Positions 41,815-42,708 of a stretch of DNA of 64,000 bases are shown piece by piece. The stretch lies in NCBI RefSeq assembly GCF_003334785.1, contig NZ_QOWV01000001.1; one strand, written 5' to 3'. Made by a program: the position numbers and the translations under genes. Positions within the stretch are counted from its first letter, which is position 1, and every line of letters starts with the position of its first letter. The notes under the pieces were generated by a model, which saw only the letters and a list, made by a program, of their open reading frames with translations, did not search any database and was not told the origin of the DNA. The DNA is from Escherichia coli (GTDB taxonomy: Bacteria; Pseudomonadota; Gammaproteobacteria; Enterobacterales; Enterobacteriaceae).

Positions 41815-42708
41815 ATGGAACAGCTGCGTGCCGAATTAAGCCATTTACTGGGCGAAAAACTCAGTCGTATTGAGTGCGTCAATGAAAAAGCGGATACGGC
41901 GTTGTGGGCTTTGTATGACAGCCAGGGAAACCCAATGCCGTTAATGGCAAGAAGCTTTAGTACGCCCGGAAAAGCCCGACAACTGGCATGGAAAACCACC
42001 ATGCTGGCAAGAAGTGGGACTGTCCGTATGCCGACTATTTATGGTGTGATGACGCATGAAGAACACCCCGGCCCCGATGTCCTGCTACTGGAGCGGATGC
42101 GTGGTGTTTCGGTGGAGGCACCAGCCCGAACACCAGAACGCTGGGAACAACTCAAAGACCAAATCGTTGAAGCCTTACTGGCCTGGCACCGTCAGGACAG
42201 TCGCGGTTGCGTCGGCGCGGTCGACAATACTCAGGAAAATTTCTGGCCCTCATGGTACCGGCAACATGTTGAAGTGCTATGGACCACGCTCAATCAGTTC
42301 AATAACACCGGTCTGACGATGCAGGATAAGCGGATCCTGTTTCGCACTCGCGAATGTCTCCCGGCATTATTTGAAGGCTTTAACGACAATTGTGTGCTGA
42401 TTCACGGTAACTTCTGTTTACGCAGCATGTTGAAAGATTCGCGCAGCGATCAGTTACTGGCGATGGTCGGGCCGGGACTAATGCTTTGGGCACCGCGAGA
42501 ATACGAACTGTTCCGACTAATGGATAATTCTCTGGCGGAAGATTTGCTCTGGAGTTACCTGCAACGCGCGCCAGTGGCGGAGTCGTTCATCTGGCGGCGT
42601 TGGTTGTATGTGTTATGGGATGAAGTTGCGCAACTGGTTAATACCGGACGATTTAGTCGGCGCAACTTCGATCTGGCATCAAAATCACTCTTGCCGTGGC
42701 TCGCCTGA
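41815..42708 (+). CDS. ycbJ: Putative phosphotransferase/kinase-fold protein YcbJ
   Basis: 297 aa MEQLRAELSHLLGEKLSRIECVNEKADTALWAL...; APH-like fold. Confidence 0.88.
   Translation: MEQLRAELSHLLGEKLSRIECVNEKADTALWALYDSQGNPMPLMARSFSTPGKARQLAWKTTMLARSGTVRMPTIYGVMTHEEHPGPDVLLLERMRGVSVEAPARTPERWEQLKDQIVEALLAWHRQDSRGCVGAVDNTQENFWPSWYRQHVEVLWTTLNQFNNTGLTMQDKRILFRTRECLPALFEGFNDNCVLIHGNFCLRSMLKDSRSDQLLAMVGPGLMLWAPREYELFRLMDNSLAEDLLWSYLQRAPVAESFIWRRWLYVLWDEVAQLVNTGRFSRRNFDLASKSLLPWLA

Follow-up and report, generated by a model that had tools for sequence, protein, structure and literature searches.

The ycbJ and elyC genes of Escherichia coli are convergent and share nucleotides at their 3′ ends (Table 1). 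They were analysed within a window of 64,000 nucleotides from contig NZ_QOWV01000001.1, the coordinates of which correspond to positions 929,938-993,937 of E. coli K-12 MG1655. The RefSeq annotation of MG1655 places ycbJ at 971752-972645 and elyC at 972622-973401, with the same ends as in the window, and a PGAP-annotated strain also has the same ycbJ and elyC ends. On the + strand the shared nucleotides read TCA CTC TTG CCG TGG CTC GCC TGA, which encodes the residues S L L P W L A of YcbJ and its stop codon, while their reverse complement reads TCA GGC GAG CCA CGG CAA GAG TGA, which encodes S G E P R Q E of ElyC followed by stop. The codon boundaries of the two frames coincide, with codon position 1 opposite position 3 and position 2 opposite position 2, so that the TGA of either gene reads on the other strand as TCA, a serine codon of the opposite gene. 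The initial annotation of this locus described a 24-bp overlap of 3′ ends on opposite strands, which is borne out by the sequence, the list of open reading frames and the RefSeq gene ends. Its statement that eight codons of each gene are shared is correct if the stop codon is counted, but not for sense codons, which number seven per gene.

Table 1. Features of the ycbJ/elyC junction; positions refer to the window unless another locus is named
Feature	Position	Strand	Length	Description
ycbJ CDS	41815..42708	+	297 aa	ORF list; RefSeq b0919, identical locus coordinates
elyC (formerly ycbC) CDS	42685..43464	-	259 aa	ORF list; RefSeq b0920
ycbJ/elyC overlap	42685..42708	both	24 bp	ycbJ codons 291-297 and stop, elyC codons 253-259 and stop
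elyC stop TGA	42685..42687	-		reverse complement of ycbJ Ser291 TCA
ycbJ stop TGA	42706..42708	+		reverse complement of elyC Ser253 TCA
Rho-dependent termination region, peak	42183 (MG1655 972,120)	+		inside ycbJ; PMC7815308, supplementary file 2
Citrobacter insertions	L006:1364-1480, L014:3395-3429, L018:3395-3487, L029:3395-3452

Because the 3′ end of a coding sequence is set by the first in-frame stop codon, the kind of ambiguity that affects start codons does not arise for the ends of ycbJ and elyC. YcbJ matched the NCBIfam equivalog NF007890 over its whole length (1-297 of 297 residues), and ElyC matched the equivalog NF007794 in the same way (1-259 of 259). Together with the Pfam domains of both proteins, their orthologues in Enterobacteriaceae and the experimental characterisation of ElyC, these full-length matches identify both as real protein-coding genes. 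The in-frame stops, the RefSeq ends and the equivalog matches, which extend to the last residue, leave no sign of the mis-annotated C-terminus that the initial annotation had considered. The two genes lie on opposite strands and share 3′ nucleotides through both stop codons, so that their convergent overlap is confirmed, and as a class it is ordinary. It is also already known, as it is present in every annotation and is stated in a 2025 preprint, which ascribes the phenotypes of ycbJ deletion to the inactivation of elyC (10.1101/2025.02.11.637708).

The ends of the two proteins differ in their predicted structure. YcbJ is a YcbJ-family phosphotransferase with an APH/fructosamine-3-kinase-like fold, in which the Pfam APH domain covers residues 64-249, and the fold of its model matched FN3K and APH(2''). 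Beyond the APH match, AlphaFold2 predicts a C-terminal helix at residues 282-296 with pLDDT of 91-95. The residues L292, P294 and W295 (L-x-P-W) are invariant down to 33% identity, as can be seen in the aligned ends of homologues, KSLLPWLA, ESLKPWLES, QNLIPWLE and ARLTPWLAY. [quoted passage not shown] The conserved core of ElyC extends to W-x-x-L-K-G251, past which the outgroups have unrelated tails. In the AlphaFold2 model of ElyC, which is of moderate quality (mean pLDDT 72.6), the last helix spans residues 235-250 and is followed by a coil (251-259) with pLDDT of about 46.

The gene order msbA-lpxK-(ycaQ)-ycaR-kdsB-ycbJ, located at 36684-42708 of the window, is kept in loci where YcbJ is 42-44% identical (L082, L084 and L086). 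This order and the kinase-like model of YcbJ could be taken as hints of a role tied to LPS/Kdo metabolism.

Conservation of the overlap and its origin

Within E. coli the junction is carried by all 5426 complete genomes, and 36 bp around it are identical in 4083 of them. In O26:H11, which was the sole representative examined of a common class with a single mismatch, the difference is located outside the 24 bp only, and a rare E. coli allele inside the overlap changes both proteins, giving A297V in YcbJ together with G254D in ElyC. The species scan used one genome per species and comprised the closest 80 loci, all from Enterobacteriaceae and with YcbJ 81-99% identical, which left out Klebsiella, Yersiniaceae, Erwiniaceae and Pectobacteriaceae. 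The overlap was exactly 24 bp in 69 of the 78 usable loci, which were those carrying both ycbJ and elyC, while it was 21 bp in five and 36 bp in two of them. Hence, an overlap of 21-36 bp is retained in 76 of these 78 species loci and is not an annotation quirk of a single genome, and the lengths of the orthologues, 297 and 259 aa, are held across about 80 species. In four of the five 21-bp loci elyC ends one codon sooner because Leu292 of ycbJ is encoded by TTA or CTA, while in the fifth it is ycbJ that is shorter by one codon. The stop codon of ycbJ is TGA in 76 of the 78 loci. In the two Enterobacter-labelled loci L057 and L074 (around positions 3392-3406) this TGA has been lost and reads GGC or GGA, so that YcbJ is extended by four residues (GSTF) and the overlap by the same change reaches 36 bp; this indicates that the ycbJ stop can move while the elyC stop stays fixed. 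Alignment across relatives had been proposed as a check in the initial annotation, and it showed that the overlap is conserved and the end of YcbJ strongly so, while the tail of ElyC is not conserved in outgroups.

More distant relatives differ in the arrangement of the two genes. A locus of the Dryocola/Cedecea/Buttiauxella type, with YcbJ 73% identical, has a 21-bp overlap. In Plesiomonas shigelloides the convergent pair is kept with a 30-bp spacer and no overlap, and in a relative with YcbJ 33% identical it is kept with a spacer of 107 bp, while in another one, with YcbJ 44% identical, elyC is absent at the matching position. Deeper Enterobacterales were sampled through the fragment representatives P0134, P0142 and P0146, for which the sole usable locus was L095, a relative with 46% identical YcbJ, split genes and a 2-bp spacer. 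The spacers of 2-107 bp in distant relatives, including Plesiomonas, indicate that the overlap is derived within Enterobacterales, and by these comparisons it is old within Enterobacteriaceae. Two further loci with apparent overlaps were set aside. The contig of L093 (Logan SRR18107613), with an apparent 24-bp overlap, is C-to-T converted throughout in a bisulfite-like manner, which makes its translations meaningless. At L094:1141-2651 (GCA_017571205.1), in a MAG with fragmented genes, the ycbJ homologue (about 46% identical) seemingly lacks a stop and continues into elyC for 265 bp; this apparent overlap was not trusted, and either pseudogenisation of the locus or an error of the assembly may account for it.

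According to the accepted view of the origin of such overlaps, a stop codon is lost or shifted, and the reading frame is then extended to the next antisense stop (PMC2174442, PMC4161906). At the locus studied here the convergent order of ycbJ and elyC would predate the overlap, and either loss of the spacer or a shift of the elyC stop would have carried the elyC frame seven codons into the antisense strand of ycbJ, as far as the TCA codon of Ser291.

The overlap has also been undone. In four loci of the Citrobacter freundii group there is no overlap, and 35-117 bp are inserted directly after the ycbJ TGA (Table 1). These insertions bear one or two REP-like palindromes (GCCGGATGGCGGCGTGAGCGTCTTATCCGGCCTAC and its inverted partner), which in L006 form an inverted pair resembling a BIME. 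ElyC of these four loci ends with ...WLKGSEH, in which EH stands in place of the last seven residues. The Citrobacter insertion is a natural uncoupling of ycbJ and elyC, and the state with the REP is the derived one, in which the overlap was abolished. The Citrobacter junctions resemble the spacer between the convergent gloC and aspC genes, another case of REP/BIME in a convergent spacer with a common core motif, whereas the E. coli ycbJ/elyC junction has neither a REP nor a spacer. In the window the REP core motif CTTATCCGGCCTAC and its inverted partner occur in the gloC-aspC spacer (54444-54506) and just past ftsK (7287-7300), which makes three occurrences versus 0.02 expected by chance.

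Transcription termination and possible antisense coupling

Several types of signal were sought around the junction. An Rfam scan of positions 41500-43800 on both strands (E ≤ 1) gave no match, and a consensus terminator scan detected no terminator-like site at or just past either stop codon; the nearest + strand match, at 42582-42598, is weak and located upstream of the ycbJ stop. RNAalifold analysis of 30 species predicted no consensus structure on the + strand, and on the - strand the sole candidate was a TGGCU/AGCCA stem of 5-6 pairs with a 17-nt loop (-4.6 kcal/mol), in which no covariation was found among these 30 species. A GC-rich hairpin with U/A tracts and covariation, as expected for a shared bidirectional intrinsic terminator, was sought at the junction and was not detected. 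The inverted repeat TGGCT...AGCCA (42697-42701 and 42719-42723) brackets the ycbJ stop codon and arises from the codons for W295-L296 of YcbJ and W248-L249 of ElyC, and its conservation is due solely to that of the two peptides. A hairpin noticed by eye at the ycbJ stop (GGCTCG-CCTGA-CGAGCC-TTT) was also rejected, as it is not conserved and its CGA encodes the hypervariable residue 252 of ElyC.

Published data place a Rho-dependent termination region inside ycbJ (Table 1), with a Rho score of 5.47 (p = 5e-12) and a resolution of about ±800 nt, so that the region spans the overlap (PMC7815308). Coverage from upstream to downstream of this region fell from 135 to 18 without bicyclomycin and from 192 to 140 with it, and the supplements of the same study contain no curated Term-seq 3′ ends at MG1655 positions 972,200-972,799 (PMC7815308). 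This suggests that much of the + strand transcription coming from kdsB halts before ycbJ is complete. The junction leaves no space for a terminator between the genes, and none was detected, so that termination most likely relies on Rho and/or takes place inside the partner gene. It is most likely Rho-dependent or diffuse rather than intrinsic, with overlapping mRNA 3′ ends; the involvement of Rho is judged from one published data set for the + strand only. The claim of the initial annotation that the arrangement guarantees antisense overlap of the two mRNAs follows logically if both genes are transcribed through their stops, and it agrees with published excludon RNA-seq data; the 3′ ends of such mRNAs would necessarily be complementary.

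On another reading, the overlap would have been selected as a regulatory device (a convergent excludon), in which the complementary 3′ ends or collision of RNA polymerases would cause mutual antagonism, for example through RNase III, and in which this coupling would conserve the arrangement. The pair ycbJ-elyC is indeed one of 165 convergent excludons listed for MG1655 because they were found in at least 50% of 58 RNA-seq samples, and short or negative intergenic distances are typical of this class, in which ExcludonFinder made the ycbJ-elyC call from coverage (PMC12288877). Read-through into the partner is plausible, since no intrinsic terminator lies between the genes; the arrangement is conserved family-wide, and ycbJ ends the msbA-lpxK-ycaR-kdsB envelope cluster, while elyC encodes an envelope factor. 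However, the constraint at the protein level and the frozen stop codon described below fully account for the conservation, and both RNA structure and covariation are absent. The Citrobacter freundii group gained REP elements between the genes and lost the shared ElyC codons, yet kept both genes, and the relatives with spacers of 2-107 bp keep the same gene pair. Moreover, transcription of the + strand is curtailed by Rho ahead of the overlap or in its vicinity, so that any antisense effect on elyC would be weaker, and neither anticorrelated expression nor RNase III data for ycbJ-elyC were found in the literature. We therefore regard a selected regulatory device as unlikely. That the family-wide conservation partly reflects selection that keeps the 3′ ends in an obligatory antisense coupling, which would link the expression of ycbJ and elyC inversely, with Rho setting the reach of each transcript, is in our estimation improbable. 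If true, such an excludon would connect ycbJ, the last gene of the msbA-lpxK-ycaR-kdsB LPS cluster, inversely to the expression of elyC, which regulates enterobacterial common antigen and the use of peptidoglycan precursors, and only if it proves functional would the overlap open a new biological question. A regulatory role is not needed to explain the conservation, and it is weakened by the Citrobacter separation and the spacer-bearing relatives. Another convergent pair of the window, ycaM (+) and ycaN (-), which abut at 18722/18723 with a 0-bp spacer, is also in the excludon list.

Selection on the shared nucleotides

The change at each site was counted as Fitch parsimony steps, since related species make raw codon counts non-independent, on a simple neighbour-joining tree of the 62 species in which the 24-bp overlap is ungapped, computed from both genes without their shared part. 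Third codon positions of ycbJ had a mean of 5.9 steps in the overlap and 13.7 outside it in these 62 species, and 0.35% of seven-codon windows of ycbJ were as low as the overlap. For third positions of elyC the corresponding means were 3.0 and 15.0 steps, and the overlap was lower than every other window. At the protein level the YcbJ tail changes at the usual rate of the protein (2.1 versus 2.5 amino-acid steps per residue), while the rate of the ElyC tail is about double that of the remainder of this protein (7.1 versus 3.9). The fast ElyC sites are E255, Q258 and E259, with 12-16 steps each, which face the wobble bases of YcbJ Leu296, Leu293 and Leu292, and the ElyC tail is fast because changes at these three leucine codons that are synonymous for YcbJ result in E/K/Q/D changes in ElyC. 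The expectation of the initial annotation that the overlap constrains both C-termini thus holds in that third-position change is suppressed in both genes, although the constraint is asymmetric. These patterns of substitution show that the shared DNA is under two-sided purifying selection, in which most of the bases are set by YcbJ, while ElyC determines its own stop and a small number of first codon positions.

In principle, the constraint on the ElyC side could be only apparent and come from ycbJ codon usage, stop-codon context or mutation bias, with the ElyC tail being a functionless passenger. The tail itself would allow this, as it is predicted to be a coil with low confidence, lacks conservation beyond the family, changes more quickly than the remainder of ElyC, and is gone in the four Citrobacter loci, but the ycbJ codons opposite to it behave otherwise. 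Three ycbJ wobble positions in the overlap had 0, 0 and 4 steps, while 96 comparable four-fold-degenerate codons outside it had a median of 18-19 steps and a minimum of 2-3, with none at 0 and three at 4 or fewer. The first of these positions, the third base of Ser291, had 0 steps, compared with a median of 18 and a minimum of 3 at the four-fold sites in the remainder of ycbJ. This codon is TCA in each of the 62 species that have the 24-bp overlap, while only 6.9% of the other serine codons of ycbJ are TCA. The third base of Ala297, which is the first base of ElyC Gly254, also had 0 steps and is C throughout. The third base of Pro294, with 4 steps, lies opposite ElyC Gly257 (Arg when the codon is CCG), and this proline is encoded by CCC in 56 of the 62 species versus 24% in the background. 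In addition, CTC, which gives Glu in ElyC, is used at Leu292 and Leu296 in about 65% of cases versus 15% in the background, so that TCA, CCC, GCC and CTC are all minority codons in the same gene of the same genomes. At Leu293 and Leu296 the codons TTA and CTA, with which ElyC would be shorter by 2 or 5 codons, are never used. Once Ser291 is freed from its role as the elyC stop, its codon does change, as it reads TCT, TCG, GCG or GGA in 6 of the 10 loci where elyC stops elsewhere. Hence, a passenger origin of the ElyC tail appears very improbable.

The two-sided purifying selection on the shared DNA can be understood from the properties of the two protein ends. The strongly conserved C-terminal helix of YcbJ with its L-x-P-W residues pins most of the 24 bp, and the ElyC tail is a poorly ordered, fast-evolving hydrophilic coil that is largely the antisense of hydrophobic YcbJ codons. 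Selection on the ElyC side still freezes its stop codon and two Gly/Arg codons. The serine codon is then frozen as TCA by being the stop codon of the partner, and it is released in lineages where it does not have this role. The computed effect of losing the Ser291 TCA is an extension of ElyC by a median of about 40 antisense-encoded residues, and by 2 residues in K-12, where Ser289 is likewise encoded by TCA; for most of the other species the added length would be 17-178 residues. The codon biases on the side of ElyC (CCC, CTC and GCC) might in principle also come from the context of the ycbJ stop codon or from an undetected RNA or DNA signal. An explanation of the codon biases by RNA structure was rejected, because there is no structure on the + strand and the - strand stem shows no compensatory change.

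The explanation that one C-terminus is an annotation artefact, unused in vivo, is effectively refuted, as nothing was found in its favour beyond the sparseness of the experimental literature on YcbJ, while both 3′ ends are the first in-frame stops with equivalog models matched to the last residue, the protein lengths are constant over about 80 species, and the last residues of YcbJ are among its most conserved and lie inside a confidently predicted helix. Altogether, the ycbJ/elyC junction is best explained as an ordinary tail-to-tail overlap of two real genes, which was fixed early in Enterobacteriaceae and has been held by purifying selection on both strands, a reading to which we would assign a probability of about 0.8.

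Related overlaps and practical meaning

E. coli has 58-75 convergent overlapping gene pairs (PMC2174442, PMC4161906), and phase 123:321 accounts for 33% of convergent overlaps of at least 5 nt (PMC2174442). The phase of ycbJ/elyC is this one, which is one of two common phases among tail-to-tail pairs (Lillo and Krakauer 2007, PMC2174442; Huvet and Stumpf 2014, PMC4161906). As in other pairs of this class, the overlap reaches as far as the first stop in antisense, which is a TCA, TTA or CTA codon of the partner, and any terminator must fall within the coding sequence of the partner. The overlap of 24 bp exceeds the mode of the class, which is 4 bp, and it differs also in that its family-wide depth of conservation and the two-sided constraint were measured directly. 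The long non-trivial antisense genes of E. coli, such as laoB and asa, likewise have both strands coding; they are described as young embedded ORFs with a long overlap with an established gene (PMC5810103, PMC6294744), while ycbJ and elyC are two old independent genes with just seven terminal codons in common. With its length of 24 bp and with both genes predating the overlap, ycbJ/elyC does not belong to this group.

The main value of the overlap is practical and illustrative. Keio deletions retain the start codon and the last six codons with the stop, that is 21 bp at the 3′ end (PMC9504249). As the overlap is 24 bp, a single-gene deletion of this design would remove the stop codon of the partner: the ycbJ deletion should lose the elyC stop, and the elyC deletion should lose the ycbJ stop. 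When the function of YcbJ is studied with library mutants, the effect on elyC must therefore be controlled for. The junction can also serve in teaching, as a clean and quantifiable example of DNA that codes on both strands and is under purifying selection from each of them.

Among the six convergent pairs of the window only ycbJ/elyC overlaps, and the spacers of the other five are 34, 0, 81, 221 and 42 bp. Overlaps of other kinds occur in the same window: mukF and mukE, both encoded on one strand, overlap by 20 bp (45685-45704), ycaR/kdsB, msbA/lpxK and cmoM/mukF by 4 bp each, and mukE/mukB by 1 bp.
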